IMG/VR virus record: IMGVR_UViG_2531839232_000010
Reading direction: 5' to 3' (one strand)
Length of the DNA stretch: 23,210 bases
Origin: a virus
Lineage: Duplodnaviria; Heunggongvirae; Uroviricota; Caudoviricetes
Part shown: in pieces, positions 53-23,210 of the stretch
Position numbering within the stretch: the first letter of the stretch is position 1
Layout of the letters: each line of letters starts with the position of its first letter
Notes under the pieces: model-generated
Seen by the model: the letters and a program-made list of their open reading frames with translations, nothing else
What the model was told of the DNA's origin: nothing
Database searches by the model: none
Position numbers and translations under genes: made by a program

Positions 53-750
53 AAAACATCGCCGCACAGATGGTTAACTTTGACCGTGAGCAGATGCGTC
101 GGATCGCCAACAACATGCCGGAACAGTACGACGAAAAGCCGCAGGTACAGCAGGTAGCGCAGATCATCAACGGTGTGTTCAGCCAGTTACTGGCAACTTT
201 CCCGGCGAGTCTGGCTAACCGTGACCAGAACGAACTGAACGAAATCCGCCGCCAGTGGGTTCTGGCTTTCCGGGAAAACGGGATCACCTCGATGGAACAG
301 GTTAACGCAGGAATGCGCGTAGCCCGTCGGCAGAATCGACCATTTCTTCCATCACCCGGGCAGTTTGTTGCATGGTGCCGGGAAGAAGCATCCGTTATCG
401 CCGGACTGCCAAACGTCAGCGAGCTGGTTGATATGGTTTACGAGTATTGCCGGAAGCGTGGCCTGTATCCGGATGCAGAGTCTTATCCGTGGAAATCGAA
501 CGCGCATTACTGGTTGGTTACCAACTTGTACCAGAACATGCGGGCCAATGCGCTGACTGACGCGGAATTACGGCGCAAGGCTGCCGATGAACTGACCTGT
601 ATGACAGCGCGAATTAACCGTGGTGAGACGATACCTGAACCAGTAAAACAACTTCCTGTTATGGGCGGTAGACCTCTAAATCGTGCACAGGCTCTGGCGA
701 AGATCGCAGAAATTAAAGCTAAGTTCGGACTGAAAGGAGCAAGTGTATGA
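49..750 (+). CDS. P: Replication protein P (DnaB helicase loader), 233 aa
   Basis: ORF 49-750, MKNIAAQMVNFDREQMRRIANNMPEQYDEK..., near-identical to lambda gpP from memory and the same length. Confidence 0.93.
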   Translation: MKNIAAQMVNFDREQMRRIANNMPEQYDEKPQVQQVAQIINGVFSQLLATFPASLANRDQNELNEIRRQWVLAFRENGITSMEQVNAGMRVARRQNRPFLPSPGQFVAWCREEASVIAGLPNVSELVDMVYEYCRKRGLYPDAESYPWKSNAHYWLVTNLYQNMRANALTDAELRRKAADELTCMTARINRGETIPEPVKQLPVMGGRPLNRAQALAKIAEIKAKFGLKGASV

Positions 751-1049
751 CGGGCAAAGAGGCAATTATTCATTACCTGGGGACGCATAAGAGCTTCTGT
801 GCACAGGACGTTGCCGCGGTAACAGGTGCAACCGTAACCAGCATAAATCAGGCTGCGGCTAAAATGGCGCGGGCAGGAATCCTGGTCGTTGATGGTAAGG
901 TCTGGCGAACGGTGTATTACCGGTTCGCTACCAGAGAAGAACGGGAAGGAAAGGTGAGCACGAATCTGATTTTTAAGGAGTGTCGCCAGAGTGCCGCGAT
1001 GAAACGGGTATTGAGGGTATATAAAAGAACATCAATGGGTACACAATGA
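747..1049 (+). CDS. ren: Ren (Rex-exclusion relief protein), 100 aa
   Basis: ORF MTGKEAIIHYLGTH...KECRQSAAMKRVL resembles lambda Ren as recalled. ATGA overlap with the P stop, as in lambda. Confidence 0.85.
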   Translation: MTGKEAIIHYLGTHKSFCAQDVAAVTGATVTSINQAAAKMARAGILVVDGKVWRTVYYRFATREEREGKVSTNLIFKECRQSAAMKRVLRVYKRTSMGTQ

Positions 1050-1066
1050 TGAAACAGGTGAGTTGA

Positions 1067-1101
1067 GTTCAAACTGTAGTACAATTCTCTCCAGTTTGAA
1101 C
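1067..1101. promoter_or_regulatory. Perfect 10-bp inverted repeat (GTTCAAACTG, 15-nt spacer, CAGTTTGAAC) between ren and emrE
   Basis: Read directly: 1067-1076 and 1092-1101 are exact reverse complements. It sits 16 bp upstream of the emrE ATG, where lambda has tR2. Function not determinable from sequence. Confidence 0.4.
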
Positions 1102-1116
1102 AGGAAAGAATATGTT

Positions 1117-1449
1117 ATGAACCCTTATATTTATCTTGGTGGTGCAATACTTGCAGAGGTCATTGGTACAACCTTAATGAAGTTTTCAGAAGGTTTTACA
1201 CGGTTATGGCCATCTGTTGGTACAATTATTTGTTATTGTGCATCATTCTGGTTATTAGCTCAGACGCTGGCTTATATTCCTACAGGGATTGCTTATGCTA
1301 TCTGGTCAGGAGTCGGTATTGTCCTGATTAGCTTACTATCATGGGGGTTTTTCGGCCAACGGCTGGACCTGCCAGCCGTTATAGGCATGATGTTGATTTG
1401 TGCCGGTGTGTTGGTTATTAATTTATTGTCACGAAGCACACCACATTAA
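1117..1449 (+). CDS. emrE: Small multidrug resistance (SMR) efflux transporter EmrE, 110 aa
   Basis: MNPYIYLGGAILAEVIGTTLMKFSEGF...LLSRSTPH matches E. coli EmrE from memory; four hydrophobic segments. ATG at 1117 with AGGAAAG upstream; the listed ORF start at 1063 is an in-frame upstream extension. Confidence 0.92.
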   Translation: MNPYIYLGGAILAEVIGTTLMKFSEGFTRLWPSVGTIICYCASFWLLAQTLAYIPTGIAYAIWSGVGIVLISLLSWGFFGQRLDLPAVIGMMLICAGVLVINLLSRSTPH

Positions 1450-1693
1450 AAATAATTTCTTTTAAAAGACTGCAATATGGCGGTTCATATCTTTACATGG
1501 GCCGCTTTTGTTAATGTTTTTAGTTTTTGTGTATTCTTTTGTGCCTTCAAGATTATTGCGTAAGCAAATTGCAATACGATTATTGTTGTATATTCAAGAT
1601 AGTGTGATCGTAATTGTCTTTTTAAATAAAAATTAAACAAAAATTATATCTCACCACTAAGGTTTATAAAAGCATAAGTTAGCAGGTGTCACC

Positions 1694-3220
1694 ATGAAAA
1701 AAGCCATAGCATATATGCGATTTTCATCACCAGGTCAGATGTCTGGCGACTCATTAAACCGACAGAGAAGACTTATTGCTGAATGGTTAAAGGTAAATAG
1801 TGATTATTATCTTGATACCATAACATATGAAGATTTAGGATTAAGTGCATTCAAAGGAAAGCATGCACAATCAGGAGCTTTTTCGGAATTTTTAGATGCT
1901 ATAGAGCATGGTTATATATTGCCAGGAACTACATTGTTAGTTGAAAGTCTGGACAGACTTTCAAGAGAAAAAGTCGGTGAAGCGATTGAACGTCTGAAAT
2001 TGATTTTGAATCACGGTATTGATGTTATAACTCTTTGCGACAATACAGTCTATAATATTGACTCTTTGAATGAGCCATATTCATTAATAAAAGCCATACT
2101 TATAGCACAAAGGGCAAATGAAGAAAGCGAGATAAAGTCAAGTCGGGTTAAATTATCATGGAAGAAAAAACGGCAGGATGCACTGGAATCAGGTACGATT
2201 ATGACGGCGTCTTGTCCGAGATGGCTCTCCTTAGATGACAAAAGAACGGCTTTTGTTCCAGACCCCGACAGGGTGAAAACTATTGAGCTAATTTTTAAAC
2301 TCAGGATGGAAAGGCGCTCATTGAATGCAATAGCCAAGTATTTAAATGATCATGCTGTAAAGAATTTCTCAGGAAAAGAAAGTGCATGGGGGCCTTCTGT
2401 AATTGAAAAATTATTAGCGAATAAAGCTCTGATAGGTATATGCGTACCTTCATATCGTGCAAGAGGGAAAGGGATAAGTGAAATCGCTGGCTATTATCCC
2501 AGAGTCATATCAGATGATTTGTTTTACGCTGTACAGGAAATTCGGTTGGCACCTTTTGGTATTAGCAATAGTAGCAAGAATCCTATGCTAATAAATCTAC
2601 TTCGAACAGTTATGAAGTGTGAGGCTTGTGGTAATACCATGATTGTTCATGCGGTATCTGGAAGTTTGCATGGCTATTATGTTTGTCCGATGAGAAGATT
2701 ACATCGATGTGACAGGCCATCAATAAAGAGAGATTTGGTTGATTATAATATCATTAATGAATTGCTTTTTAATTGTAGCAAAATTCAACCAGTTGAAAAC
2801 AAGAAAGATGCTAATGAAACTTTAGAGTTAAAAATTATTGAGCTTCAGATGAAAATTAATAATTTAATCGTTGCATTGTCTGTCGCGCCTGAAGTTACCG
2901 CTATAGCAGAGAAAATAAGACTATTAGATAAGGAATTACGAAGAGCTTTGGTATCATTGAAAACTTTGAAGAGTAAAGGTGTAAATTCATTCAGTGATTT
3001 TTATGCTATTGACTTAACCAGTAAAAATGGACGAGAGTTATGCCGTACACTTGCCTATAAAATATTCGAAAAAATCATAATTAATACGGATAATAAAACC
3101 TGTGATATCTATTTTATGAATGGCATTGTTTTTAAACACTATCCTTTAATGAAAGTAATATCCGCCCAGCAGGCGATAAGTGCTCTCAAATATATGGTTG
3201 ATGGTGAGGTTTATTTTTGA
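1694..3220 (+). CDS. ybcK: Large serine recombinase (YbcK-like), 508 aa
   Basis: N-terminal resolvase-type motif AYMRFSSPGQ (Y-x-R-x-S-S-x-x-Q, catalytic Ser), central Cys cluster C-x2-C...C...C (zinc ribbon), C-terminal coiled-coil-like region. AT-rich codon usage unlike the lambda-like flanks. Resembles DLP12 YbcK as recalled. Confidence 0.8.
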   Translation: MKKAIAYMRFSSPGQMSGDSLNRQRRLIAEWLKVNSDYYLDTITYEDLGLSAFKGKHAQSGAFSEFLDAIEHGYILPGTTLLVESLDRLSREKVGEAIERLKLILNHGIDVITLCDNTVYNIDSLNEPYSLIKAILIAQRANEESEIKSSRVKLSWKKKRQDALESGTIMTASCPRWLSLDDKRTAFVPDPDRVKTIELIFKLRMERRSLNAIAKYLNDHAVKNFSGKESAWGPSVIEKLLANKALIGICVPSYRARGKGISEIAGYYPRVISDDLFYAVQEIRLAPFGISNSSKNPMLINLLRTVMKCEACGNTMIVHAVSGSLHGYYVCPMRRLHRCDRPSIKRDLVDYNIINELLFNCSKIQPVENKKDANETLELKIIELQMKINNLIVALSVAPEVTAIAEKIRLLDKELRRALVSLKTLKSKGVNSFSDFYAIDLTSKNGRELCRTLAYKIFEKIIINTDNKTCDIYFMNGIVFKHYPLMKVISAQQAISALKYMVDGEVYF

Positions 3221-3573
3221 GTAATAATCACTTTTTCAACCGTGCTATGGTATGAAAGTAAAGTAACTACTATGATATTAACTATCGAGCAAGAATATCC
3301 CCAGGCACTCAACAGGGCGCAGGTCAACGTGAATCGGTCATGACACGACACCGATTTTGCGGAATCAATGTTGCTTATGAATACAACATCCCGCTTAGTA
3401 CATGTTCAACACATCAGCAAATTTTGAACTGGGTGTGGCACTTAACTGAAAAAACATGGATGACACAAAATGTTACTCGTCGCTTCATTGAAGTAGCTTG
3501 TGGATATCACAAGCTAGACTATCGCCAATGATATTCAATTTTTGATTTTTTAGTATCAACCTTCCATAATAAT

Positions 3574-3602
3574 GTCACCGGAGCTTGAACAACTCCGGTG
3601 AC
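3574..3602 (+). terminator. Stem-loop with perfect 10-bp stem (GTCACCGGAG / CTCCGGTGAC) and 9-nt loop; weak T-tract
   Basis: Read directly from sequence. Followed by TTCTGCGC rather than a strong U-run, so terminator activity is uncertain. Confidence 0.3.
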
Positions 3603-3608
3603 TTCTGC

Positions 3609-3630
3609 GCATTTAAGGGGACTTAAATGC
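3609..3630. promoter_or_regulatory. 9-bp perfect palindrome GCATTTAAG-GGGA-CTTAAATGC overlapping the RBS/start of the ylcH-like ORF
   Basis: Read directly; the half-sites are exact reverse complements. Candidate operator or translational-control hairpin. Confidence 0.35.
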
Positions 3631-3725
3631 GACCACAATCTGAACTCCTTACCTTGTCACAGATGCAGAAATGCACCTGCGATGTCTTGCATCCAGCGTT
3701 TGATCTCTGCGGAGGTGAAGCGTGA
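3627..3725 (+). CDS. ylcH: Small Cys-containing peptide (32 aa), YlcH-like by position
   Basis: ATG 3627 preceded by AAGGGGA; translates [32 protein letters not shown]. Its stop overlaps the ybcN GTG start (GTGA). Below the 60-aa cut-off of the ORF track. K-12 has a 33-aa ylcH just upstream of ybcN as I recall. Confidence 0.4.
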
Positions 3726-4177
3726 ACCTCCCACAAGATGGCATCAAATTACATCGCGGTAACTTCACCGCTGTCGGTCAGCAGATCCAGACTTATCTGG
3801 AAGACGGCAAATGCTTTCGCATGGTGCTTAAACCGTGGCGCGAGAGACGCAGTCTTTCCCAGAATGCACTCAGCCACATGTGGTACAGCGAAATCAGTGA
3901 ATACCTCATCAGCAGGGGGAAATCGTTCGCTACTTCAGCATGGGTAAAAGATGCTCTCAAACACACATACCTCGGTTATGAAACCAAGGACCTGGTTGAT
4001 GTCGTAACCGGCGAAATCACTACTATCCAGTCGTTACGCCATACCTCCGATCTTGGTACCGGAGAGATGTATGTCTTCCTGTGTAAGGTTGAAGCCTGGG
4101 CGATGAATATTGGCTGCCACCTGACTATTCCACAGAGCTGCGAGTTCCAGCTGCTGCGTGACAAGCAGGAGGCGTAA
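3722..4177 (+). CDS. ybcN: NinB/Orf-family recombination protein (YbcN-like), 151 aa
   Basis: GTG start with GGAGGT 7 nt upstream; [21 protein letters not shown]...; the [12 protein letters not shown] motif resembles lambda NinB RSLDQNRKLWA. Same length as K-12 YbcN. Confidence 0.8.
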
Positions 4178-4347
4178 TGGCTACACCGCTTATTCGTGTC
4201 ATGAACGGACACATCTACAAAGTACCAAATCGTCGTAAGCGTAAACCTGAGCTGAAGCCATCCGAAATACCAACACTGCTCGGATATACCGCCAGCCTGG
4301 TTGATAAAAAATGGTTGCGACTGGCAGCAAGGAGGAATCATGGCTGA
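4177..4347 (+). CDS. ninE: NinE-like small protein, 56 aa
   Basis: TAATG overlap with the ybcN stop; translates [56 protein letters not shown]; basic. Below the ORF-track size cut-off. Confidence 0.55.
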   Translation: MATPLIRVMNGHIYKVPNRRKRKPELKPSEIPTLLGYTASLVDKKWLRLAARRNHG

Positions 4348-4630
4348 TTTGAGAAAAGCAGCGCGTAGTCGGGAATGCCAAGTAAGAATCCCTGGCGTAT
4401 GTAATGGCAACCCTGAAACGTCTGTACTGGCACATATCCGGCTGACTGGATTGTGCGGCACCGGTACCAAACCGCCAGACTTGATTGCCACCATTGCATG
4501 TTCTGCCTGCCACGACGAAATCGACCGCCGCACACATTTTGTCGATGCTGCATATGCAAAAGAATGCGCGCTGGAAGGTATGGCGAGAACACAGGTTATC
4601 TGGCTGAAAGAGGGGGTTATTAAGGCGTGA
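4340..4630 (+). CDS. ybcO: DUF1364-type putative nuclease (YbcO-like), 96 aa
   Basis: ATG 4340 with AGGAGG 6 nt upstream; [35 protein letters not shown]...[11 protein letters not shown] has four Cys plus His (metal site). The TTG at 4301 in the ORF track is an upstream extension. Confidence 0.75.
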
Positions 4631-4989
4631 ATACCTACAGCATCACATTACCCTGGCCTCCGAGCAATAATCGCTACTACCGGCATAATCGCGGGCGCAC
4701 GCACATCAGCGCAGAAGGGCAGGCATACCGTGATAACGTCGCCCGAATCATCAAAGGCTCCATGCTGGATATCGGCCTGGCTATGCCAGTGAAAATCCGT
4801 ATTGAGTGCCACATGCCGGATCGCCGTCGCCGTGACCTGGATAATCTGCAAAAAGCCGCTTTTGACGCACTCACCAAAGCAGGTTTCTGGCTGGATGATG
4901 CTCAGGTCGTTGATTACCGTGTTGTGAAGATGCCCGTTACCAAAGGTGGGAAGCTGGAGCTGACCATCACCGAACTGGGGAATGAATGA
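4627..4989 (+). CDS. rusA: Holliday-junction resolvase RusA, 120 aa
   Basis: [18 protein letters not shown]...[25 protein letters not shown]... matches E. coli RusA from memory, including the acidic catalytic cluster. Confidence 0.92.
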
Positions 4990-5126
4990 TGTTTGAGTCT
5001 TATATGGCAGAACGTCTTCGCCACCGCTGGATGCGCCTGCGCTTATATCGTTTTCCTGGTTCTGTTTTGACCGATTACCGGATACTGAAGAATTACGCCA
5101 AAACACTGAAAGGAGCTGCCGCATGA
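4986..5126 (+). CDS. ylcG: YlcG-like small protein, 46 aa
   Basis: ATGA overlap with the rusA stop; [46 protein letters not shown]; its stop overlaps the next ATG. Below the ORF-track cut-off. Confidence 0.5.
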
Positions 5127-5812
5127 ATACCCAATATTTACAGTATGTCCGCGAGCAACTCATTGTGGCTACCGCTGATTTGAGCGGAGCAACGAAAGGA
5201 CAGCTTGAAGCCTGGCTGGAGCATGCACAATTTGATACTGGTACATACAAACGAAAGAAGCCGCGCATTCTGGATGAGGTAACTGGCAGGATGATTACGC
5301 TGGATAATCCGCCGATTTCCGGTAAGCAGTCGTACGCAAAAGGTTCATCCATTGCACTGGTCAGCCAGGTTGAGTTCTCAACCTCGTCATGGCGCCGCGC
5401 GGTTCTGTCTCTCGAAGAACATCAGAAAGCGTGGTTGCTGTGGAGTTACAGCGAAAGTGTTCGCTGGGAACATCAGGTCACCATAACGCAGTGGGCATGG
5501 AGCGAGTTTAAGACTCTGTTGGGTACCAGGAAAATTGCAGGTAAGACACTGGAACGTTTGAAGAAGTTGATCTGGCTGGCGGCACAGGATGTGAAGAACG
5601 AGCTGGCAGGGCGTAAGACCTATGAATACCAGGAGCTGGCATCACTGGTGGGAGTGACATCAAAAAACTGGTCTGAGACATTTACTGAACGCTGGGTTGC
5701 AATGAAACACATTTTTCTACAGCTTGATAGCCAAGCTTTATTGCTTTTAACGAAAACACGTTCAAAACAAAAGACCACATTTTCACAGCAAGATATTGCA
5801 AAACTGGATTAA
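5123..5812 (+). CDS. Putative late-gene antiterminator in the Q position (non-lambda type), 229 aa
   Basis: Last gene of the nin operon, immediately upstream of terminator hairpins and the lysis cassette. No cysteines (lambda Q has a zinc finger); HTH-like segment YQELASLVGVTSKNWSE. Family assignment is positional. Confidence 0.5.
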   Translation: MNTQYLQYVREQLIVATADLSGATKGQLEAWLEHAQFDTGTYKRKKPRILDEVTGRMITLDNPPISGKQSYAKGSSIALVSQVEFSTSSWRRAVLSLEEHQKAWLLWSYSESVRWEHQVTITQWAWSEFKTLLGTRKIAGKTLERLKKLIWLAAQDVKNELAGRKTYEYQELASLVGVTSKNWSETFTERWVAMKHIFLQLDSQALLLLTKTRSKQKTTFSQQDIAKLD

Positions 5813-5880
5813 AAATCATATATTTTATGTAAATCTGATATTTTGCCAATGTTGTACGCACTGGCAGTAATCCAAATTCA

Positions 5881-5917
5881 AGCCCGAGGTTTAAAGCCTT
5901 GGGCTTTTCTGTTTCTG
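5881..5917 (+). terminator. Intrinsic terminator-like hairpin (9-bp stem AGCCCGAGG / CCUUGGGCU with one G-U pair, 7-nt loop) followed by TTTTCTGTTTCTG
   Basis: Read directly from sequence. Confidence 0.55.
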
Positions 5918-5993
5918 AACGGTGAGTAGCCTTCCAACCTACCCCAGCCAGGGGGTCTTCAGCTGTTGAGTTGATATTGCTTAGCCCTCTGTT

Positions 5994-6017
5994 GCCAGCT
6001 ACATGCTGGCTTTTTTA
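5994..6017 (+). terminator. Intrinsic terminator (6-bp GC stem GCCAGC / GCTGGC, 5-nt loop, TTTTTTA tract); candidate tR' of the late promoter transcript
   Basis: Read directly; classic rho-independent geometry, about 120 bp upstream of the holin start. Confidence 0.6.
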
Positions 6018-6133
6018 TTCCAGGCTTGTGGGGAGCATCAACTCCGTGCTTTGTCGTTAAATTACCCCGTGAGCCTGATTTCTGACATTTAACGTCCCGG
6101 CCTTTTGTCGGCGGCGAAACATTGGCTATTCAT

Positions 6134-6439
6134 ATGCACGAAAAAGAGAGCCTTGCCGGAGCGTTCTGGCTCGTTTTGCTGATCATCGCAGGTTGGGGCG
6201 GTCTGGTCCGCTACCTGATAGATGTGAAGCAGAGTAAAGCAACGTGGAGTTGGATAAATGCTCTGGCTCAAATAGTGGTATCAGGATTCACCGGTGTTAT
6301 TGGTGGCCTGATCAGCATCGAAAGTGGATTCAGTATTTACATGATTCTCGCGACAGCGGGGATTAGTGGTGCGATGGGTTCGGTTGCACTGACGTACTTC
6401 TGGGAACGACTGACAGGGGTGAAAAATGCAAAATCTTAA
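6134..6439 (+). CDS. Holin (three predicted transmembrane segments), not lambda-S-like
   Basis: MHEKESLAGAFWLVLLIIAGWGGLVRYLI...; three hydrophobic stretches, charged C-terminus, 3' overlap with endolysin R as in lambda S/R. Start uncertain: in-frame TTG at 6122 would add MAIH. Confidence 0.7.
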   Translation: MHEKESLAGAFWLVLLIIAGWGGLVRYLIDVKQSKATWSWINALAQIVVSGFTGVIGGLISIESGFSIYMILATAGISGAMGSVALTYFWERLTGVKNAKS

Positions 6440-6902
6440 TCCTCAGCGTAAAGCCTTCCTCGATATGTTGGCGTGGTCAGAAGGAACGGATAACGGGCGA
6501 CAACCGACACGTAACCACGGTTATGATGTTATTGTTGGCGGCGAACTGTTTACTGATTACTCCGATCACCCTCGCAAACTTGTCACGCTACACCCCAAAC
6601 TCAAATCAACAGCCGCCGGACGTTATCAGCTTCTTTCACGCTGGTGGGATGCTTACCGTAAACAGCTTGGTTTGAAAGACTTCTCCCCCAAAAGCCAGGA
6701 CGCAGTGGCATTGCAGCAGATTAAAGAGCGTGGTGCTTTACCTATGATTGATCGCGGTGATATCCGTCAGGCAATCGACCGTTGCAGTAATATCTGGGCT
6801 TCACTGCCGGGCGCTGGTTATGGTCAGTTCGAGCATAAGGCTGACAGCCTGATTGCAAAATTCAAAGAAGCTGGCGGAACGGTCAGAGAGAGTGAGGTAT
6901 GA
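6426..6902 (+). CDS. R: Endolysin R (lytic transglycosylase), 158 aa
   Basis: Near-identical to lambda gpR from residue ~7 ([20 protein letters not shown]...); the first residues (MQNLNP) differ from lambda's MVEINN. Confidence 0.95.
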
Positions 6903-7360
6903 GCAGAATAACCGCGATTATCTCCGCTCTGCTCATCTGCATCATCGTCTGCCTGTCATGGGCTGTTAATCATTACCGTGATAACGCCATTACCTACAAA
7001 GCCCAGCGCGACAAAAATGCCAGAGAACTGAAGCTGGCGAACGTGGCAATTACTGACATGCAGATGCGTCAGCGTGATGTTGCTGCGCTCGATGCAAAAT
7101 ACACGAAGGAGTTAGCTGATGCGAAAGCTGAAAATGATGCTCTGCATGATGATGTTGCCGCTGGTCGTCGTCGGTTGCACATCAAAGCAGTCTGTCAGTC
7201 AGTGCGTGAAGCCACCACCGCCTCCGGCGTGGATAATGCAGCCTCCCCCCGACTGGCAGACACCGCTGAACGGGATTATTTCACCCTCAGAGAGAGGCTG
7301 ATCACTATGCAAAAACAACTGGAAGGAACCCAGAAGTATATTAATGAGCAGTGCAGATAG
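6899..7360 (+). CDS. Rz: Spanin inner-membrane subunit Rz, 153 aa
   Basis: [44 protein letters not shown]... near-identical to lambda Rz from memory. Confidence 0.95.
7119..7301 (+). CDS. Rz1: Spanin outer-membrane lipoprotein Rz1, 60 aa, embedded in the +1 frame of Rz
   Basis: [24 protein letters not shown]... (lipobox LVVVGC), proline-rich; AAGGAG upstream of ATG 7119. Confidence 0.92.
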
Positions 7361-7391
7361 AGCTGCCCATATCGATGGGCAACTCATGCAA

Positions 7392-7685
7392 TTATTGTGA
7401 GCAATACACCCGCGCTTCCAGCGGAGTATAAATGCCTAAAGTAATAAAACCGAGCAATCCATTTACGAATGTTTGCTGGGTTTCTGTTTTAACAACATTT
7501 TCTGTGCCGCCACAAATTTTGGCTGCATCGACAGTTTTCTTCTGCCCAATTCCAGAAACGAAGAAATGATGGGTGATGGTTTCCTTTGGTGCTACTGCTG
7601 TCTGTTTGTTTTGAACAGTAAACGTCTGTTGAGCACATCCTGTAATAAGCAGGGCCAGCGCAGTAGCGAGTAGCATTTTTTTCAT
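7392..7685 (-). CDS. bor: Bor outer-membrane lipoprotein (serum-resistance moron), 97 aa
   Basis: MKKMLLATALALLITGCAQQTFTVQNK... matches lambda Bor from memory; lipoprotein signal with lipobox ITGC. Confidence 0.93.
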   Translation of the reverse strand: MKKMLLATALALLITGCAQQTFTVQNKQTAVAPKETITHHFFVSGIGQKKTVDAAKICGGTENVVKTETQQTFVNGLLGFITLGIYTPLEARVYCSQ

Positions 7686-7818
7686 GGTGTTATTCCCGAT
7701 GCTTTTTGAAGTTCGCAGAATCGTATGTGTAGAAAATTAAACAAACCCTAAACAATGAGTTGAAATCTCATATTGTTAATATTTATTAATGTATGTCAGA
7801 TGCGAAGGATCGTCACTG

Positions 7819-8943: not shown

Positions 8944-9043
8944 TGTCAGGAAAGTGGTAAAACTGCAACTCAATTACTGCAATGCCCTCGTAATTAAGTG
9001 AATTTACAATATCGTCCTGTTCGGAGGGAAGAACGCGGGATGT

Positions 9044-9238
9044 TCATTCTTCATCACTTTTAATTGATGTATATGCTCTCTTTTCTGACGTTAGCCTCCG
9101 ACGGCAGGCTTCAATGACCCAGGCTGAGAAATTTCCGGACCCTTTTTGATCAAGAGCGATGTTAATTTGTTCAATCATTTGGTTAGGAAAGCGGATGTTG
9201 CGGGTTGTTGTTCTGCGGGTTCTGTTCTTCGTTGACAT
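9044..9238 (-). CDS. ylcI: Small basic protein with ribbon-helix-helix-like pattern (YlcI-like), 64 aa
   Basis: MSTKNRTRRTTTRNIRFPNQMIEQINIALDQKGSGNFSAWVIEACRRRL...: basic N-tail, then beta-strand/helix/turn/helix pattern typical of Arc/MetJ/CopG RHH folds. Fold call is by eye. Confidence 0.6.
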   Translation of the reverse strand: MSTKNRTRRTTTRNIRFPNQMIEQINIALDQKGSGNFSAWVIEACRRRLTSEKRAYTSIKSDEE

Positions 9239-9437
9239 AATGTTGCCCCATATTCAGTGTTGCTGATTTGTATTATCTGAAGTTGCTTTTACGTTAATTT
9301 GATGCAGATCAATTAATACGATACCTGCGTCATAATTGATTATTTGACGTGGTTTGATGGCGTAGATGCACGTTGTGACATGTAGATGATAATTATTATC
9401 ATTTTGCGGGTCCTTTCCGGCGATCCGACCGGTTACG

Positions 9438-9449
9438 GGGCGGCGACCT
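9438..9449. other. cosN: cosN: 12-nt cohesive-end sequence GGGCGGCGACCT (terminase nicking site)
   Basis: Exact lambda cohesive-end sequence, preceded by ...CGATCCGACCGGTTACG, which resembles the lambda right end. cosQ-like sequence GGGTCCTTTCCGG lies just upstream (about 9408-9420). Confidence 0.9.
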
Positions 9450-9620
9450 CGCGGGTTTTCGCTATTTATGAAAATTTTCCGGGGAAAATCATGTCGGTAC
9501 TTCTCGAACATAACTATTTGTTTTTTCTAATATCGAATCCGTAAAGGTCCGACATGAAAACGCCTGAAAAAGTCATTTTCGGGCACTTTCATGTCGGACC
9601 CTGTATTTGTTGTGAGACTG
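9450..9620. promoter_or_regulatory. cosB: cosB with three terminase small-subunit binding repeats and an AT-rich bend region
   Basis: Three copies of a CATGTCGG core: AATCATGTCGGTAC (9487-9500), TTTTCATGTCGGACC on the minus strand (9546-9560), TTTCATGTCGGACC (9587-9600). The middle copy is inverted. These differ from lambda R-site sequences as I recall them. Confidence 0.7.
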
Positions 9621-9624
9621 TTTC

Positions 9625-10144
9625 ATGAAGGTTAATAAAAAGAAACTTGCCGAAATTTTCAACGTGGATCCGCGAACGATTGAACGCTGGCAGTCTCAGG
9701 GGCTCCCTTGCGTCTCCGGAGGTGGTAAGGGCGTTGAATCTGTATTTGATACCGCCACGGCAATTCAGTGGTATGCGCAGAGGGAAGCTGATATCGAAAA
9801 TGAAAAACTCCGTAAAGAGGTTGAGGATTACAGGGCTGCCAGCGAGGCAGATCTCCAGCCTGGGACTATTGAGTACGAATGCCATCGACTTACGCGTGCG
9901 CAGGCTGACGCCCAGGAGCTGAAGAATGCCAGAGACTCCGCAGAAGTGGTGGAAACCGCATTCTGTACTTTCGTGCTGTCACGGATCGCAGGTGAAATTG
10001 CCAGTATTCTCGACGGGATCCCCCTGTCGGTGCAGCGGCGTTTTCCGGAACTGGAAAACCGACATGTTGATTTCCTGAAACGGGATATTATCAAAGCCAT
10101 GAACAAAGCAGCCGCGCTGGATGAACTGATACCGGGGTTGCTGA

Positions 10145-10170
<26 letters not shown>
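9625..10170 (+). CDS. nu1: Terminase small subunit Nu1 (NohD-like), 181 aa; N-terminal DNA-binding domain non-lambda, C-terminal part lambda-like
   Basis: [36 protein letters not shown]... diverges from lambda Nu1 (MEVNKKQLADIFGASIRTIQNWQEQGMPVLRGGGKG...) through about residue 70, then is near-identical ([14 protein letters not shown]...LSEYIEQS). Confidence 0.9.
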
Positions 10171-13851
<3,681 letters not shown>

Positions 13852-13871
<20 letters not shown>

Positions 13872-15171
13872 TCTCCCGCATATTGCCAGCATGGCTTTTA
13901 ATGAGCCGCTGATGCTTGAACCCGCCTATGCGCGGGTTTTCTTTTGTGCGCTTGCAGGCCAGCTTGGGATCAGCCGCCTGACGGATGCAGTATCCGGCGA
14001 CAGCCTGACTGCCGGAGAGGCACCCGCGGCGCTGGCGTTATCCGGTGATGATGACGGACCACGACAGGCCCGGAGTTATCAGGTCATGAACGGCATCGCC
14101 GTGCTGCCGGTGTCCGGTACGCTGGTCAGCCGGACGCGGGCGCTGCAGCCGTATTCGGGAATGACCGGTTACAACGGCATTATCGCCCGTCTGCAACAGG
14201 CTGCCAGCGATCCGATGGTGGACGGCATTCTGCTCGATATGGACACACCGGGCGGGATGGTGGCGGGAGCATTTGACTGTGCTGACATCATCGCCCGTGT
14301 GCGAGACATAAAACCGGTATGGGCGCTGGCCAACGACATGAACTGCAGTGCAGGTCAGCTGCTTGCCAGCGCCGCCTCCCGGCGTCTGGTCACGCAGACC
14401 GCCCGGACAGGCTCCATCGGCGTCATGATGGCTCACAGTAATTACGGTGCTGCCCTGGAGAAACAGGGCGTGGAAATCACGCTGATTTACAGCGGCAGCC
14501 ATAAGGTGGATGGCAACCCCTACAGCCATCTACCGGGTGATGTCCGGGAAACACTGCAGTCCCGGATGGATGCAACCCGCCGGATGTTTGCGCAGAAGGT
14601 GTCGGCATATACCGGCCTGTCCGTGCAGGCTGTGCTGGATACCGAGGCTGCAGTGTACAGCGGTCAGGAGGCCATTGATGCCGGACTGGCTGATGAACTT
14701 GTCAACAGCACCGATGCGATCACCGTTATGCGTGATGCACTGGATGCACGTAAATCCCGTCTCTCAGGAGGGCGAATGACCAAAGAGACTCAATCAACAA
14801 CTGTTTCAGCCACTGCTTCGCAGGCTGACGTTACTGGCGTGGTGCCAGCGACGGAGGGCGAAAACGCCAGCGCGGCGCAGCCGGACGTGAACGCGCAGAT
14901 CACCGCTGCGGTTGCGGCAGAAAACAGCCGCATTATGGGGATCCTCAACTGTGAGGAGGCTCACGGACGCGAAGAACAGGCCCGCGTGCTGGCAGAAACC
15001 CCCGGTATGACCGTGGAAACGGCCCGCCGCATTCTGGCCGCAGCACCACAGAGTGCACAGGCGCGCAGTGATACTGCGCTGGATCGTCTGATGCAGGGGG
15101 CTCCGGCACCGCTGGCTGCAGGTAACCCGGCATCTGATGCCGTTAACGATTTGCTGAACACACCAGTGTAA
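13852..15171 (+). CDS. C: Prohead protease / minor capsid protein gpC, 439 aa
   Basis: GTG start at 13852 overlapping the 3' end of B; MTAELRNLPHIASMAFNEPLMLEPAYARVFF... matches lambda gpC. The ORF-track ATG at 13717 is an in-frame upstream extension inside B. Confidence 0.9.
14566..15171 (+). CDS. nu3: Scaffolding protein Nu3, 201 aa, in-frame internal start within C
   Basis: ATG at 14566 in the C frame (MDATRRMFAQKV...), 606 nt before the shared stop, matching the lambda C/Nu3 nested arrangement as recalled. Confidence 0.65.
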   Translation: MDATRRMFAQKVSAYTGLSVQAVLDTEAAVYSGQEAIDAGLADELVNSTDAITVMRDALDARKSRLSGGRMTKETQSTTVSATASQADVTGVVPATEGENASAAQPDVNAQITAAVAAENSRIMGILNCEEAHGREEQARVLAETPGMTVETARRILAAAPQSAQARSDTALDRLMQGAPAPLAAGNPASDAVNDLLNTPV

Positions 15172-15180
15172 GGGATGTTT

Positions 15181-15513
15181 ATGACGAGCAAAGAAACCTT
15201 TACCCATTACCAGCCGCTGGGCAACAGTGACCCGGCTCATACCGCAACCGCGCCCGGCGGATTGAGTGCGAAAGCGCCTGCAATGACCCCGCTGATGCTG
15301 GACACCTCCAGCCGTAAGCTGGTTGCGTGGGATGGCACCACCGACGGTGCTGCCGTTGGCATTCTTGCGGTTGCTGCTGACCAGACCAGCACCACGCTGA
15401 CGTTCTACAAGTCCGGCACGTTCCGTTATGAGGATGTGCTCTGGCCGGAGGCTGCCAGCGACGAGACGAAAAAACGGACCGCGTTTGCCGGAACGGCAAT
15501 CAGCATCGTTTAA
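15181..15513 (+). CDS. D: Head decoration protein gpD, 110 aa
   Basis: [33 protein letters not shown]... matches lambda gpD; the ATG at 15175 is a 2-codon upstream alternative. Confidence 0.93.
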
Positions 15514-15530
15514 CCTGACCCTTCATCACT

Positions 15531-15556
15531 AAAGGCCGCCTGTGCGGCTTTTTTTA
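15531..15556 (+). terminator. Terminator-like hairpin between D and E (stem around GCCGC / GCGGC, 4-nt loop, then T6-7)
   Basis: Read directly: AAAGGCCGCCTGTGCGGCTTTTTTTA. Confidence 0.45.
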
Positions 15557-15568
15557 CGGGATTTTTTT

Positions 15569-16594
15569 ATGTCGATGTACACAACCGCCCAACTGCTGGC
15601 GGCAAATGAGCAGAAATTTAAGTTTGATCCGCTGTTTCTGCGTCTCTTTTTCCGTGAGAGCTATCCCTTCACCACGGAGAAAGTCTATCTCTCACAAATT
15701 CCGGGACTGGTAAACATGGCGCTGTACGTTTCGCCGATTGTTTCTGGTGAGGTTATCCGTTCCCGTGGCGGCTCCACCTCTGAATTTACGCCGGGATATG
15801 TCAAGCCGAAGCATGAAGTGAATCCGCAGATGACCCTGCGTCGCCTGCCGGATGAAGATCCGCAGAATCTGGCGGACCCGGCTTACCGCCGCCGTCGCAT
15901 CATCATGCAGAACATGCGTGACGAAGAGCTGGCCATTGCTCAGGTCGAAGAGATGCAGGCAGTTTCTGCCGTGCTCAAGGGCAAATACACCATGACCGGT
16001 GAAGCCTTCGATCCGGTTGAGGTGGATATGGGCCGCAGTGCGGCGAACAACATCACGCAGTCCGGCGGCACGGAGTGGAGCAAGCGTGACAAGTCCACGT
16101 ATGACCCGACCGACGATATCGAAGCCTACGCGCTGAACGCCAGCGGCGTGGTGAATATCATCGTGTTTGACCCGAAAGGCTGGGCGCTGTTCCGTTCCTT
16201 CAAAGCCGTCAGGGAGAAGCTGGATACCCGTCGCGGCTCTCATTCCGAACTGGAGACAGCGGTAAAAGACCTGGGCAAAGCGGTGTCTTATAAGGGAATG
16301 TATGGCGATGTGGCCATCGTCGTGTATTCCGGACAGTACGTGGAAAACGGCGTCAAAAAGAACTTCCTGCCGGACAACACGATGGTGCTGGGGAACACTC
16401 AGGCACGCGGTCTGCGCACCTATGGCTGCATTCAGGATGCGGACGCACAGCGCGAAGGCATTAACGCCTCTGCCCGTTACCCGAAAAACTGGGTGACCAC
16501 CGGCGATCCGGCGCGTGAGTTCACCATGATTCAGTCAGCACCGCTGATGCTGCTGGCTGACCCTGATGAGTTCGTGTCCGTACAACTGGCGTAA
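15569..16594 (+). CDS. E: Major capsid protein gpE, 341 aa
   Basis: MSMYTTAQLLAANEQKFKFDPLFLRLFFRESYPF... matches lambda gpE; same length. Confidence 0.95.
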   Translation: MSMYTTAQLLAANEQKFKFDPLFLRLFFRESYPFTTEKVYLSQIPGLVNMALYVSPIVSGEVIRSRGGSTSEFTPGYVKPKHEVNPQMTLRRLPDEDPQNLADPAYRRRRIIMQNMRDEELAIAQVEEMQAVSAVLKGKYTMTGEAFDPVEVDMGRSAANNITQSGGTEWSKRDKSTYDPTDDIEAYALNASGVVNIIVFDPKGWALFRSFKAVREKLDTRRGSHSELETAVKDLGKAVSYKGMYGDVAIVVYSGQYVENGVKKNFLPDNTMVLGNTQARGLRTYGCIQDADAQREGINASARYPKNWVTTGDPAREFTMIQSAPLMLLADPDEFVSVQLA

Positions 16595-16596
16595 TC

Positions 16597-16621
16597 ATGG
16601 CCCTTCGGGGCCATTGTTTTT
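16597..16621 (+). terminator. Terminator-like hairpin between E and FI (7-bp stem ATGGCCC / GGGCCAT, UUCG tetraloop, then TGTTTTT)
   Basis: Read directly from sequence. Confidence 0.45.
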
Positions 16622-16635
16622 CTGTGGAGGAGTCC

Positions 16636-17034
16636 ATGACGAAAGATGAACTGATTGCCCGTCTCCGCTCGCTGGGTGAACAACTGAACCGTGATGTCAG
16701 CCTGACGGGGACGAAAGAAGAACTGGCGCTCCGTGTGGCAGAGCTGGAAGAGGAGCTTGATGACACGGATGAAACTGCCGGTCAGGACACCCCTCTCAGC
16801 CGGGAAAATGTGCTGACCGGACATGAAAATGAGGTGGGATCAGCGCAGCCGGATACCGTGATTCTGGATACGTCTGAACTGGTCACGGTCGTGGCACTGG
16901 TGAAGCTGCATACTGATGCACTTCACGTCACGCGGGATGAACCTGTGGCATTTGTGCTGCCGGGAACGGCGTTTCGTGTCTCTGCCGGTGTGGCAGCCGA
17001 AATGACAGAGCGCGGCCTGGCCAGAATGCAATAA
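16636..17034 (+). CDS. FI: DNA-packaging accessory protein gpFI, 132 aa
   Basis: MTKDELIARLRSLGEQLNRDVSLTGTKEELALRVAELEEELDD... matches lambda gpFI; the ORF-track start at 16597 is an upstream extension. Confidence 0.9.
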   Translation: MTKDELIARLRSLGEQLNRDVSLTGTKEELALRVAELEEELDDTDETAGQDTPLSRENVLTGHENEVGSAQPDTVILDTSELVTVVALVKLHTDALHVTRDEPVAFVLPGTAFRVSAGVAAEMTERGLARMQ

Positions 17035-17045
17035 CGGGAGGCGCT

Positions 17046-17399
17046 GTGGCTGATTTCGATAACCTGTTCGATGCTGCCATTGCCCGCGCCGATGAAACGA
17101 TACGCGGGTACATGGGAACGTCAGCCACCATGACATCCGGTGAGCAGTCCGGCGCAGTAATACGTGGTGTTTTTGATGACCCTGAAAATATCAGCTATGC
17201 CGGACAGGGCGTGCGTGTTGAAGGCTCCAGCCCGTCCCTGTTTGTCCGGACTGATGATGTGCGGCAACTGCGGCGTGGAGACACGCTGACCATCGGTGAG
17301 GAAAACTTCTGGATAGACCGGATTTCGACGGATGATGGCGGAAGCTGTCATCTCTGGCTTGGGCGGGGCGTACCGCCTGCCGTTAACCGTCGTCGCTGA
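17046..17399 (+). CDS. FII: Head completion protein gpFII, 117 aa
   Basis: GTG start; MADFDNLFDAAIARADETIRGYMGTSAT... matches lambda gpFII. Confidence 0.92.
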   Translation: MADFDNLFDAAIARADETIRGYMGTSATMTSGEQSGAVIRGVFDDPENISYAGQGVRVEGSSPSLFVRTDDVRQLRRGDTLTIGEENFWIDRISTDDGGSCHLWLGRGVPPAVNRRR

Positions 17400-17410
17400 A
17401 GGGGGGATGT

Positions 17411-17989
17411 ATGGCCATAAAAGGTCTTGAGCAGGCCGTTGAAAACCTCAGTCGTATCAGCAAAACGGCGGTGCCTGGTGCGTCAGCAATGGCCATTAAC
17501 CGCGTTGCTTCATCCGCGATATCGCAGTCGGCGTCACAGGTTGCCCGTGAGACAAGAGTACGCCGGAAACTGGTAAAGGAAAGGGCCAGGCTGAAAAGGG
17601 CCACGGTTAAAAATCCGCAGGCCAGAATCAAGGTTAACCGGGGGGATTTGCCCGTAATCAAGCTGGGTAACGCGCGGGTTGTCCTGTCCCGACGCAGGCG
17701 TCGTAAAAAGGGGCAGCGTTCATCCCTGAAAGGTGGCGGCAGCGTGCTTGTGGTGGGAAACCGTCGTATTCCCGGCGCGTTTATTCAGCAACTGAAAAAT
17801 GGCCGGTGGCATGTCATGCAGCGTGTGGCCGGGAAAAACCGTTACCCCATTGATGTGGTGAAAATCCCGATGGCGGTGCCGCTGACCACGGCGTTTAAAC
17901 AGAATATTGAGCGGATACGGCGTGAACGTCTTCCGAAAGAGCTGGGCTATGCGCTGCAGCATCAACTGAGAATGGTAATAAAGCGATGA
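17411..17989 (+). CDS. Z: Tail completion protein gpZ, 192 aa
   Basis: MAIKGLEQAVENLSRISKTAVPGA... matches lambda gpZ. Confidence 0.93.
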   Translation: MAIKGLEQAVENLSRISKTAVPGASAMAINRVASSAISQSASQVARETRVRRKLVKERARLKRATVKNPQARIKVNRGDLPVIKLGNARVVLSRRRRRKKGQRSSLKGGGSVLVVGNRRIPGAFIQQLKNGRWHVMQRVAGKNRYPIDVVKIPMAVPLTTAFKQNIERIRRERLPKELGYALQHQLRMVIKR

Positions 17990-18381
17990 AACATACTGAA
18001 CTCCGTGCAGCCGTACTGGATGCACTGGAGAAGCATGACACCGGGGCGACGTTTTTTGATGGTCGCCCCGCTGTTTTTGATGAGGCGGATTTTCCGGCAG
18101 TTGCCGTTTATCTCACCGGCGCTGAATACACGGGCGAAGAGCTGGACAGCGATACCTGGCAGGCGGAGCTGCATATCGAAGTTTTCCTGCCTGCTCAGGT
18201 GCCGGATTCAGAGCTGGATGCGTGGATGGAGTCCCGGATTTATCCGGTGATGAGCGATATCCCGGCACTATCAGATTTGATCACCAGTATGGTGGCCAGT
18301 GGCTATGACTACCGGCGCGACGATGATGCGGGCCTGTGGAGTTCAGCCGATCTGACTTATGTCATTACCTATGAAATGTGA
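17986..18381 (+). CDS. U: Tail terminator protein gpU, 131 aa
   Basis: [43 protein letters not shown]... matches lambda gpU; ATGA overlap with Z. Confidence 0.93.
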
Positions 18382-18388
18382 GGACGAT

Positions 18389-19129
18389 ATGCCAACACCA
18401 AATCCTCTGGCACCGGTGAAAGGGGCCGGGACCACACTGTGGGTTTATAACGGGAACGGCGACCCATATGCAAACCCGCTTTCAGACAATGACTGGTCGC
18501 GTCTGGCAAAGGTTAAAGACCTGACGCCCGGCGAACTGACCGCTGAGTCCTATGACGACAGTTATCTCGATGATGAAGATGCGGACTGGGCCGCGACCGG
18601 ACAGGGGCAGAAATCCGCTGGAGATACCAGCTTCACGCTGGCGTGGATGCCCGGAGAGCAGGGGCAGCAGGCGCTGCTGGCGTGGTTTAATGAAGGTGAT
18701 ACCCGTGCCTATAAAATCCGCTTCCCGAACGGCACGGTCGATGTGTTCCGCGGCTGGGTCAGCAGTATCGGTAAGGCGGTGACGGCGAAGGAAGTGATCA
18801 CCCGCACGGTGAAAGTCACCAACGTGGGACGTCCGTCGATGGCAGAAGATCGCAGCACGGTAACAGCGGCAACCGGCATGACCGTGACGCCTGCCAGCAC
18901 CTCGGTGGTGAAAGGGCAGAGCACGACGCTGACCGTGGCATTCCAGCCGGAAGGCGCAACCGACAAGAGCTTCCGTGCGGTGTCTGCGGATAAAACAAAA
19001 GCCACCGTGTCGGTCAGTGGTATGACCATCACCGTGAAAGGTGTTGCTGCAGGCAAGGTCAACATTCCGGTCGTATCCGGTAATGGTGAGTTTGCTGCGG
19101 TTGCAGAAATCAACGTCACCGCCAGTTAA
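18389..19129 (+). CDS. V: Major tail tube protein gpV, 246 aa
   Basis: [33 protein letters not shown]... matches lambda gpV; start set at ATG 18389, not the ORF-track 18359. Confidence 0.93.
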
Positions 19130-19144
19130 TCCGGAGAATCAGCG

Positions 19145-19567
19145 ATGTTCCTGAAAACCGAATCATTTGAACATAACGGCGTGACCGTCACGCTTTCTGA
19201 ACTGTCAGCCCTGCAGCGTATTGAGCATCTCGCCCTGATGAAACGGCAGGCAGAACAGGCGGAGTCAGACAGCAACCGGAAGTTTACTGTGGAAGACGCC
19301 ATCAGAACCGGCGCTTTTGTGGTGGCGATGTCCCTGTGGCATAACCATCCGAAGAAGACGCAGATGCCGTCCATGAATGAAGCCGTTAAACAGATTGAGC
19401 AGGAAGTGCTTACCACCTGGCCCGCGGAGGCAATTTCTCATGCTGAAAACGTGGTGTACCGGCTGTCCGGTATGTATGAGTTTGTGGTGAATGATGCCCC
19501 TGAACAGGCAGAGGACGCCGGGCCTGCAGAGCCTGTTTCTGCGGGAAAGTGTTCGACGGTGAGCTGA
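19145..19567 (+). CDS. G: Tail assembly chaperone gpG, 140 aa
   Basis: MFLKTESFEHNGVTVTLSELSALQRIEHLALMKRQAEQAESD... matches lambda gpG. Confidence 0.93.
   Translation: MFLKTESFEHNGVTVTLSELSALQRIEHLALMKRQAEQAESDSNRKFTVEDAIRTGAFVVAMSLWHNHPKKTQMPSMNEAVKQIEQEVLTTWPAEAISHAENVVYRLSGMYEFVVNDAPEQAEDAGPAEPVSAGKCSTVS
19543..19549 (+). other. Programmed -1 ribosomal frameshift slippery heptamer G GGA AAG
   Basis: GGGAAAG read as G.GGA.AAG in the G frame, 6 codons before the G stop; the -1 frame continues open through 19983. Confidence 0.85.
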
Positions 19568-19983
19568 GTTTTGCCCTGAAACTGGCGCGCGAGATGGGGC
19601 GACCCGACTGGCGTGCCATGCTTGCCGGGATGTCATCCACGGAGTATGCCGACTGGCACCGCTTTTACAGTACCCATTATTTTCATGATGTTCTGCTGGA
19701 TATGCACTTTTCCGGGCTGACGTACACCGTGCTCAGCCTGTTTTTCAGCGATCCGGATATGCATCCGCTGGATTTCAGTCTGCTGAACCGGCGTGAGGCT
19801 GACGAAGAGCCTGAAGATGATGTGCTGATGCAGAAAGCGGCAGGGCTTGCTGGAGGCGTTCGTTTTGGCCCGGACGGGAATGAAGTTATCCCCGCTTCCC
19901 CGGATGTGGCGGACATGACGGAGGATGACGTAATGCTGATGACAGTATCAGAAGGGATCGCAGGAGGAGTCCGGTATGGCTGA
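19549..19983 (+). CDS. T: T segment of the gpG-T fusion (expressed only via the -1 frameshift from G)
   Basis: Open -1 frame (VFDGELSFALKLAREMGRPDWRAMLAGMS...) with no independent RBS or ATG; matches the lambda G-T arrangement. Confidence 0.85.
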   Translation: MFDGELSFALKLAREMGRPDWRAMLAGMSSTEYADWHRFYSTHYFHDVLLDMHFSGLTYTVLSLFFSDPDMHPLDFSLLNRREADEEPEDDVLMQKAAGLAGGVRFGPDGNEVIPASPDVADMTEDDVMLMTVSEGIAGGVRYG

Positions 19984-22525: not shown

Positions 22526-22851
22526 AAACCTTCCGCTGGAAAGTGAAACCCGGTATGGATGTGGCTTCGGCCCCTTCCGTAAGAAAGGTGCGCTTTGGTG
22601 ATGGCTATTCCCAGCGAGCGCCTGCCGGGCTGAATGCCGACCTGAAAACGTACAGCGTGACGCTTTCTGTTCCCCGTTGGGAGGCCACGGCGCTTGAGTC
22701 GTTTCTGGCTGAGCACGGGGGCTGGAAGGCCTTTCTGTGGACGCCGCCTTATGAGTGGCGGCAGATAAAGGTGACCTGCGCAAAATGGTCGTCGCGGGTC
22801 AGTATGCTGCGTGTTGAGTTCAGCGCAGAGTTTGAACAGGTGGTGAACTGA
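22522..22851 (+). CDS. M: Minor tail protein gpM, 109 aa
   Basis: MKTFRWKVKPGMDVASAPSVRKVRFGDGYSQRAPAGLNA... matches lambda gpM; ATGA overlap with H. Confidence 0.93.
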   Translation: MKTFRWKVKPGMDVASAPSVRKVRFGDGYSQRAPAGLNADLKTYSVTLSVPRWEATALESFLAEHGGWKAFLWTPPYEWRQIKVTCAKWSSRVSMLRVEFSAEFEQVVN

Positions 22852-23210
22852 TGCAGGATATCCGGCAGGAAACACTGAATGAATGCACCCGTGCGGAGCA
22901 GTCGGCCAGCGTGGTGCTCTGGGAAATCGATCTGACAGAGGTCGGTGGAGAACGTTATTTTTTCTGTAATGAGCAGAACGAAAAAGGTGAGCCGGTCACC
23001 TGGCAGGGGCGACAGTATCAGCCGTATCCCATTCAGGGGAGTGGTTTTGAACTGAATGGCAAAGGCACCAGTACGCGCCCCACGCTGACGGTTTCTAACC
23101 TGTACGGTATGGTCACCGGGATGGCGGAAGATCTGCAGAGTCTGGTCGGCGGAACGGTGGTCCGGCGTAAGGTTTACGCCCGTTTTCTGGATGCGGTGAA
23201 CTTCGTCAAC
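22851..23210 (+). CDS. L: Minor tail protein gpL, N-terminal 120 codons (continues beyond the window)
   Basis: ATG 22851 overlaps the M stop (TGATG); MQDIRQETLNECTRAEQSASVVLWEIDLTEVGGERYFFCNEQNEKGEP... matches lambda gpL. Confidence 0.9.
   Translation, partial: MQDIRQETLNECTRAEQSASVVLWEIDLTEVGGERYFFCNEQNEKGEPVTWQGRQYQPYPIQGSGFELNGKGTSTRPTLTVSNLYGMVTGMAEDLQSLVGGTVVRRKVYARFLDAVNFVN

Follow-up and report, generated by a model that had tools for sequence, protein, structure and literature searches.

The region around the cos site of the window (the whole 23,210-nucleotide stretch of DNA analysed here) is very probably a functional cos site and terminase operon in which the recognition module has been exchanged for one of phage-21-family origin. 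To judge from the alignments, the exchanged module is flanked on the left by cosQ-cosN of the lambda/DLP12 type and on the right by that part of Nu1 (the small terminase subunit, TerS) which serves oligomerisation and TerL binding and which is lambda-type, as is the gpA (TerL) that follows. The window can be regarded as the natural equivalent of the laboratory lambda-21 hybrid 51 (hy51) of the Feiss laboratory, which carries cosB of phage 21 and a small-subunit gene with its 5' part from phage 21 gene 1 and its 3' part from Nu1, and which is viable and 21-specific (PMC4669245, PMC9026076).

The window in its entirety is a lambdoid prophage of E. coli of the DLP12 type, with the gene order P, ren, emrE, ybcK, rusA, Q, lysis genes, bor, ybcV, ybcW, ylcI, nohD and then head and tail genes resembling those of lambda. 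The nu1 gene is a 181-codon ORF (9625-10170) whose overlap with A (10145-12070, plus strand) is exactly lambda-like, and nu1, A and every head and tail gene as far as L are intact ORFs. Comparison with Pfam profiles revealed that Nu1 matches Phage_Nu1 (PF07471) over the full length of the profile (positions 1-164 of 164) with a score of 299.7 bits, where the curated threshold is 30, and that the product of A (gpA, TerL) matches both GpA_ATPase and GpA_nuclease. We also note that emrE (multidrug efflux) and ybcK (recombinase) lie at 1117-3220 between ren and the nin region, as they do in K-12 DLP12.

The anatomy of the cos site was read against the annotated phage 21 head-operon record M81255 (R4, cosN, I2, R3, I1, R2, R1, I0), with DE3 as the lambda reference. 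The 12-nt cohesive end of cosN, GGGCGGCGACCT, is read directly from the sequence at 9438-9449 (plus strand), and lambda, phage 21, DLP12 and M6 all have the same 12 nt; with base 9438 taken as bp 1 of the virion chromosome, the cosB elements sit precisely where those of phage 21 are annotated. The cosQ or R4 box, which is required for packaging termination, reads CGGGTCCTTTCC at 9407-9418 (plus strand). These bases are common to lambda, phage 21 and the window, occupy invariant alignment columns and are the same as the R4 of M81255 at 136-147. An 85-codon ORF on the minus strand (9254-9511) covers cosQ, cosN and R3 and appears as an annotated gene in some assemblies (e.g. L008, 2630-2887); it is almost certainly spurious, because it would be cut in every virion chromosome.

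Between cosN and cosB lies an I2-equivalent spacer of the lambda/DLP12 type (9467-9481, plus strand; phage 21 I2 is annotated at bp 30-44), and beyond it the layout is that of phage 21. The R3 box, AATCATGTCGGTACTT (9487-9502, plus strand), is 21-type and matches 15/16 bases of phage 21 R3 (AATCGTGTCGGTACTT); bp 56 (9493) and bp 59 (9496) are both G and hence of the phage 21 type, whereas bp 54 is A in the window and G in phage 21. The R2 box is inverted, reading TTTCATGTCGGACCTT on the minus strand (9544-9559), and is identical to phage 21 R2 at 16/16 positions, while the R1 box, TTTCATGTCGGACCCT (9587-9602, plus strand), matches 14/16 with two mismatches against phage 21 R1 (TTTCATGTCGGGCCTT). 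The R3-R2 and R2-R1 spacings (57 bp and 43 bp, respectively) both equal those in M81255. The IHF site I1, AAACAAATAGTTA (9509-9523, minus strand), with one mismatch to the consensus WATCAANNNNTTR, is located between R3 and R2 at an offset from cosN equal to that of the annotated phage 21 I1.

All three R boxes keep the octamer core CATGTCGG (9490-9497, plus strand; 9549-9556, minus strand; 9590-9597, plus strand). Dinucleotide-preserving shuffles give an expectation of ~0.94 copies per 23 kb window, compared to three copies within 108 bp here, and the clustering is not due to chance. A fourth exact copy of CATGTCGG is found at 10059-10066 (minus strand), inside the lambda-derived 3' part of nu1, and the same bases occur in lambda nu1 and are absent from phage 21. 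We considered this copy as a functional extra R box and rejected it as a probable chance occurrence, given the expectation of about one copy in a window of this size and the presence of the same bases in lambda nu1. N15 carries an R-like site within its own gene 1.

Segment identities from a four-way alignment, along with a scan of informative sites versus lambda (DE3) and phage 21 (M81255), delimit the exchanged module. Segment 9257-9409 is 92% identical to lambda versus 51% to phage 21, and segment 9410-9482 (cosQ-cosN-I2) is 97% identical to lambda and 90% to phage 21, with few informative sites, all but one of which are lambda-type. For segment 9483-9816, which contains R3, I1, R2 and R1 as well as Nu1 codons 1-64, identity is 59.3% to lambda versus 87.7% to phage 21; a mixed zone (9817-9839) follows with 61% to each, and segment 9840-10144 is 96.7% identical to lambda versus 59.3% to phage 21. 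Informative sites within 9483-9816 comprise 110 of the phage 21 type and 15 of the lambda type, compared to 12 and 197, respectively, outside of it (Fisher's exact test, p = 1e-56).

At the left edge, positions 9455, 9461, 9479 and 9481 are lambda-type, and phage-21-type bases prevail from 9483 on. Compared with the donor type represented by an E. coli M6 prophage (see below), the window agrees with DLP12 at 9428 and 9455, and with M6 and DLP12 as parent types the left crossover maps to the interval from 9455 to 9483, which belongs to the conserved cosN-I2 stretch. The right breakpoint zone comprises nu1 codons 65-72 (EVEDYRAA; 9817-9839, plus strand), where lambda-type, 21-type and private bases alternate and where a private Tyr69 is encoded. 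The switch between lambda and phage 21 inside nu1 is completed in these 23 bp, and we regard it as one sharp junction and not as graded divergence. The junction-zone bases are the same in the phage IdasGreatGrand, which argues for one ancestral event, and since the 23-bp zone fits neither parent cleanly, none of the sequences in the comparison is a true parent. Moreover, the right switch lies where the DNA-binding domain of lambda Nu1, as solved in PDB 1J9I (residues 1-68), comes to its end, which indicates that the exchanged unit is the DNA-recognition domain along with its DNA sites and nothing else. A structure of the 21-type DNA-binding domain (PDB 7LWR) matches residues 1-54, and none of the papers in the library searched mentions this entry.

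The Nu1 protein is correspondingly bipartite. Codons 1-64 (9625-9816, plus strand) encode a 21-family winged helix-turn-helix DNA-binding domain that is identical to phage 21 gp1 at 57/64 residues, to M6 TerS at 62/64 and to lambda Nu1 at 38/64, and codons 73-181 (9840-10170, plus strand) encode the lambda-type self-assembly and TerL-binding part, in which 106 of 109 residues are shared with lambda Nu1 versus 53 of 109 with phage 21 gp1. This lambda-type C-terminus of the chimeric Nu1 is paired with a lambda-type gpA, identical to that of lambda at 630/641 residues (98%) versus 67% identity to phage 21 gp2, whose N-terminus does not align. The recognition helix (residues 17-26) is identical to that of phage 21 gp1 at 10/10 positions and includes the 21-type residues Glu20 and Ser24, in place of Gln20 and Glu24 in lambda. 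According to Feiss and colleagues, the contacts by which lambda and phage 21 are told apart are TerS residues 20 and 24 and R3 bp 56 and 59, with lambda Glu24 clashing with the phage 21 G:C at bp 56 (PMC4669245); these published determinants (E20, S24 and G at both R3 bp 56 and 59) are all 21-type in the window. The wing (codons 30-37, 9712-9735) reads VSGGGKGV, compared to ASKGSKGI in phage 21 and LRGGGKGN in lambda, so that its GGGKG core is lambda-like despite 21-type surroundings, and the same wing occurs in the M6 donor-type allele.

These comparisons bear out each element of the first-pass annotation, which had read the cosN and cosQ side as lambda-like, had seen three cosB repeats with the middle copy inverted (found here as R3, R2 and R1 at the exact phage 21 positions and spacing), had likened cosB and the Nu1 N-terminus to phage 21 and had described Nu1 from about residue 70 onward and gpA as nearly identical to lambda. 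Its proposed breakpoint at 9830-9850 was essentially right in lying inside nu1 and only slightly off with respect to the mixed zone, and the alignment of Nu1 against lambda Nu1 and phage 21 gp1 that it had suggested as a check revealed a divergence that switches sharply and is not uniform. One substitution within the assembly region, Nu1 Arg86Cys (CGC to TGC at 9880), is non-conservative. It is also present in the allele of the type found in CDC#03-98 and does not occur in IdasGreatGrand, RM19259, lambda or phage 21.

In the E. coli M6 prophage, the cassette is the same allele as in the window, with 62/64 residues and the wing VSGGGKGV in common, but the C-terminal half downstream of it resembles that of phage 21, and by this arrangement the prophage can be taken to represent the donor lineage. 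It also makes clear that the 15 "lambda-type" sites in the cassette belong to the donor allele and are not later conversions. Phage 21 itself was considered as the donor and rejected, its identity to the cassette being only 87.7%, versus 62/64 residues for the M6-type allele; the donor is best described as a 21-family allele ~12% diverged from phage 21. The recipient type is represented by K-12 DLP12 and the prophage of O157:H7 strain F7508, both of which have the same flanks as the window (almost base for base in the left flank of DLP12) but a lambda-type cosB and NohD. As far as tract size indicates the direction of the ancient exchange, a 21-type cassette would have entered a lambda-type background.

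The hybrid allele is old and common. A 131-bp junction probe detected it at an identity of at least 95% in 547/5426 complete E. coli genomes (~10%), many O157:H7 strains among them, and the isolated phage IdasGreatGrand has the same hybrid at 98.1% identity. With the cassette alone, matches of at least 95% were obtained in 568 genomes and of 80-90% (the canonical phage 21 class) in 806 genomes, versus only 4 genomes at 90-95%, and this gap indicates that the allele classes are discrete. In the assembly collection, 2104 index blocks contain the exact Nu1 protein of the window, and of 28 contigs read from 24 of these blocks, the five listed as encoding the identical Nu1 are all of the CDC#03-98 type. 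When we searched the full-text literature for a description of a natural lambda/21 chimeric TerS, only laboratory hybrids were found.

On top of the ancestral exchange, a more recent event is suggested in the lineage of the window. Its closest relatives are prophages of O157:H7 strains such as F7508, which are 99.7% identical and have a lambda-type cosB. The window differs from F7508 at 205 positions, 190 of which are confined to 9239-10342, and none fall within 349-7381 or 15103-23210. The tract that sets this prophage apart from its nearest siblings (9239-10342, plus strand) matches the hybrid-cos prophage of CDC#03-98: from 9239 to 10010 there are no differences from the PerC-YlcI-TerS prophage of this strain, a second O157-type prophage that is of another prophage type, and short F7508-like patches occur further right. 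This pattern suggests that an already-hybrid module was copied recently on a ~1.1 kb tract from a co-resident prophage into the DLP12-type one, which would have converted its cos type from lambda to hybrid, and such copying between co-resident prophages is in our view the simplest reading. The first-pass annotation had proposed that the cassette was replaced as a unit; the exchange of cosB with the Nu1 N-terminus is supported, but the unit that moved most recently in the window's own lineage appears to be larger, at ~1.1 kb. The arrangement of the window (DLP12-type left flank joined to the hybrid cassette) occurred in no complete E. coli genome at more than 95.5% identity across 8950-9620, and a 45-mer over the left edge of the tract had no exact match in IMG/VR or the JGI metagenomes. 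Co-residence is seen in E. coli RM19259, which harbours both of these prophage types as two lambdoid prophages 133 kb apart (L015 4317285 and L016 4184024) that have the same cosN, one with a hybrid 21-type and the other with a lambda-type cosB/TerS module. The different recognition modules would keep packaging of these two prophages separate. Apart from the tract, a second cluster of 11 substitutions versus F7508 is present in the bor region (7382-7708) and may be another small conversion patch.

We propose that the 21-type recognition helix of a chimeric TerS dimer reads the 21-type R boxes with the assistance of IHF bending at I1, and that the lambda-type TerS C-terminus would then bring the lambda-type TerL to nick the shared cosN, the predicted outcome being a 21-like packaging specificity on lambda head machinery. 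As to its origin, the junction at the domain boundary (codons 65-72) probably goes back to one ancestral homologous recombination, with the left crossover in the conserved cosN-I2 stretch, where cos cutting is known to stimulate recombination. Recombination between lambda and DLP12 is frequent, and junctions cluster beside cos because cos is cut (PMC3945230). The hybrid allele would have spread widely after the ancestral recombination and, in the lineage of the window, would have entered, on the ~1.1 kb tract, a prophage of the DLP12 type, in which cosB is normally lambda-type. What counts against an exchanged module of phage-21-family origin is that the identity of the cassette to phage 21 reaches no more than 87.7%.

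If no exchange had occurred, the Nu1 N-terminus and cosB would derive from a lambda-type ancestor by faster evolution, or by co-evolution in situ, and would only look foreign. Such a history would accord with the need for cosB and the recognition domain to co-evolve and with the common ancestry of lambda and phage 21 (PMC4669245), but the DNA identity to phage 21 extends to the non-coding spacers, the cassette is nearly identical to that of the M6 prophage with its 21-type downstream half, the identity classes in E. coli genomes are discrete (568, 806 and 4 genomes at the identities given above), and sibling prophages that are otherwise identical have a lambda-type cosB. On the basis of the DNA-level identity to 21-family sequences and of the discrete allele classes we consider in-situ divergence excluded, its probability being negligible. 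An exchange could, on the other hand, have left a non-functional relic, such that the chimeric TerS, or the R86C copy of it, no longer packages and persists because the prophage is defective. K-12 DLP12-type prophages are defective, as are many O157 prophages (PMC2669165), and the R86C substitution is non-conservative and affects the assembly region; against this, nu1, A and the head and tail genes through L are intact ORFs, the same hybrid occurs in an isolated phage (IdasGreatGrand) and in ~10% of genomes, the laboratory hybrid hy51 is viable (PMC4669245) and DLP12 nu1 works once moved into lambda (PMC3945230). We therefore regard a relic as unlikely overall: a dead copy is possible in the case of the window, with its R86C, and unlikely for the allele as a whole.

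Even with a functional exchanged module of phage-21-family origin, the specificity could deviate from that of canonical phage 21, because the wing, R3 bp 54 and two R1 bases differ. In the extreme, a helix of the phage 21 type, combined with a wing like that of lambda and with changed flanks of R3 and R1, would create a third packaging specificity, neither that of lambda nor that of phage 21. The divergent wing (VSGGGKGV versus ASKGSKGI in phage 21 and LRGGGKGN in lambda), the A at R3 bp 54 where phage 21 has G, the two changes in R1 and the clean separation of this allele class from the phage 21 class all point in this direction, whereas the recognition helix is 10/10 phage 21, R2 is conserved at 16/16 positions, the CATGTCGG core is present in all three boxes and each of the genetically mapped determinants (residues 20 and 24; bp 56 and 59) is of the phage 21 type, and on balance a third specificity is improbable. 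There is an equally slim chance that the cassette is a distinct recognition allele (21-type helix, lambda-like wing and a consensus-perfect R3) whose recent copying would re-wire cross-packaging among the prophages of an O157-type genome; if this were true, the terminase of the donor prophage could, for example, come to package a DLP12-type prophage or face competition from it.

Returning to an exchanged recognition module in a functional terminase operon, the closest relative in design is hy51, which likewise combines a 21-type cosB and 5' small-subunit part with the lambda Nu1 3' part, lambda gpA and shared cosN and cosQ. However, hy51 was laboratory-selected from phage 21 itself and is described as carrying roughly half of gene 1, whereas the hybrid in the window is natural, with a donor ~12% diverged from phage 21 and a junction at codons 65-72. 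With phage 21 (M81255; 7LWR) the window shares the R3-I1-R2-R1 layout and spacing, the CATGTCGG core, the recognition helix, E20, S24 and bp 56/59, but phage 21 has its own gp1 C-terminal half, its own gp2 (67% to the gpA of the window) and other sequence left of cosQ, and within residues 1-54 the two proteins differ by six amino acids, mostly in the wing. Conversely, the bor-ybcV-ybcW-ylcI side, cosQ, cosN, Nu1 residues 73-181 and the start of gpA are the same as in lambda and K-12 DLP12 (nohD), which differ in having a lambda-type cosB and Nu1 residues 1-64, with only 59% DNA identity to the cassette of the window. As in lambda-N15 hy4 and the P22-like TerS chimeras, the N-terminal recognition module and its DNA site are exchangeable independently of the TerL-binding C-terminus, although those chimeras involve other donors and recognition sequences, and N15 cosB is simple, with a single R site.

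The modular design of TerS (a swappable DNA-recognition head with cosB and a conserved enzyme-recruiting tail), which was deduced from laboratory hybrids, thus appears to be used in nature, where the junction lies at the same domain boundary and the allele has spread to roughly one in ten complete E. coli genomes. The understanding of packaging is unchanged by this finding, and the natural hybrid is real but ordinary. The apparent recent transfer of a whole cos-nu1 module between prophage types that coexist in Shiga-toxin-producing strains bears on their mutual mobilisation and is a modest added point.

Finally, a divergent patch was observed at the extreme N-terminus of gpA (10166-10207, residues 8-21; V8I, R10I, H13R, F14D and S21A, with N37S at ~10253-10255 in addition), which overlaps the end of nu1 (Nu1 G181D). 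Lambda, DLP12 and F7508 lack the patch, whereas 473 complete genomes have it, as do the hybrid-cos prophages that were examined. Residues 8-37 account for 6/11 of the gpA differences from lambda.
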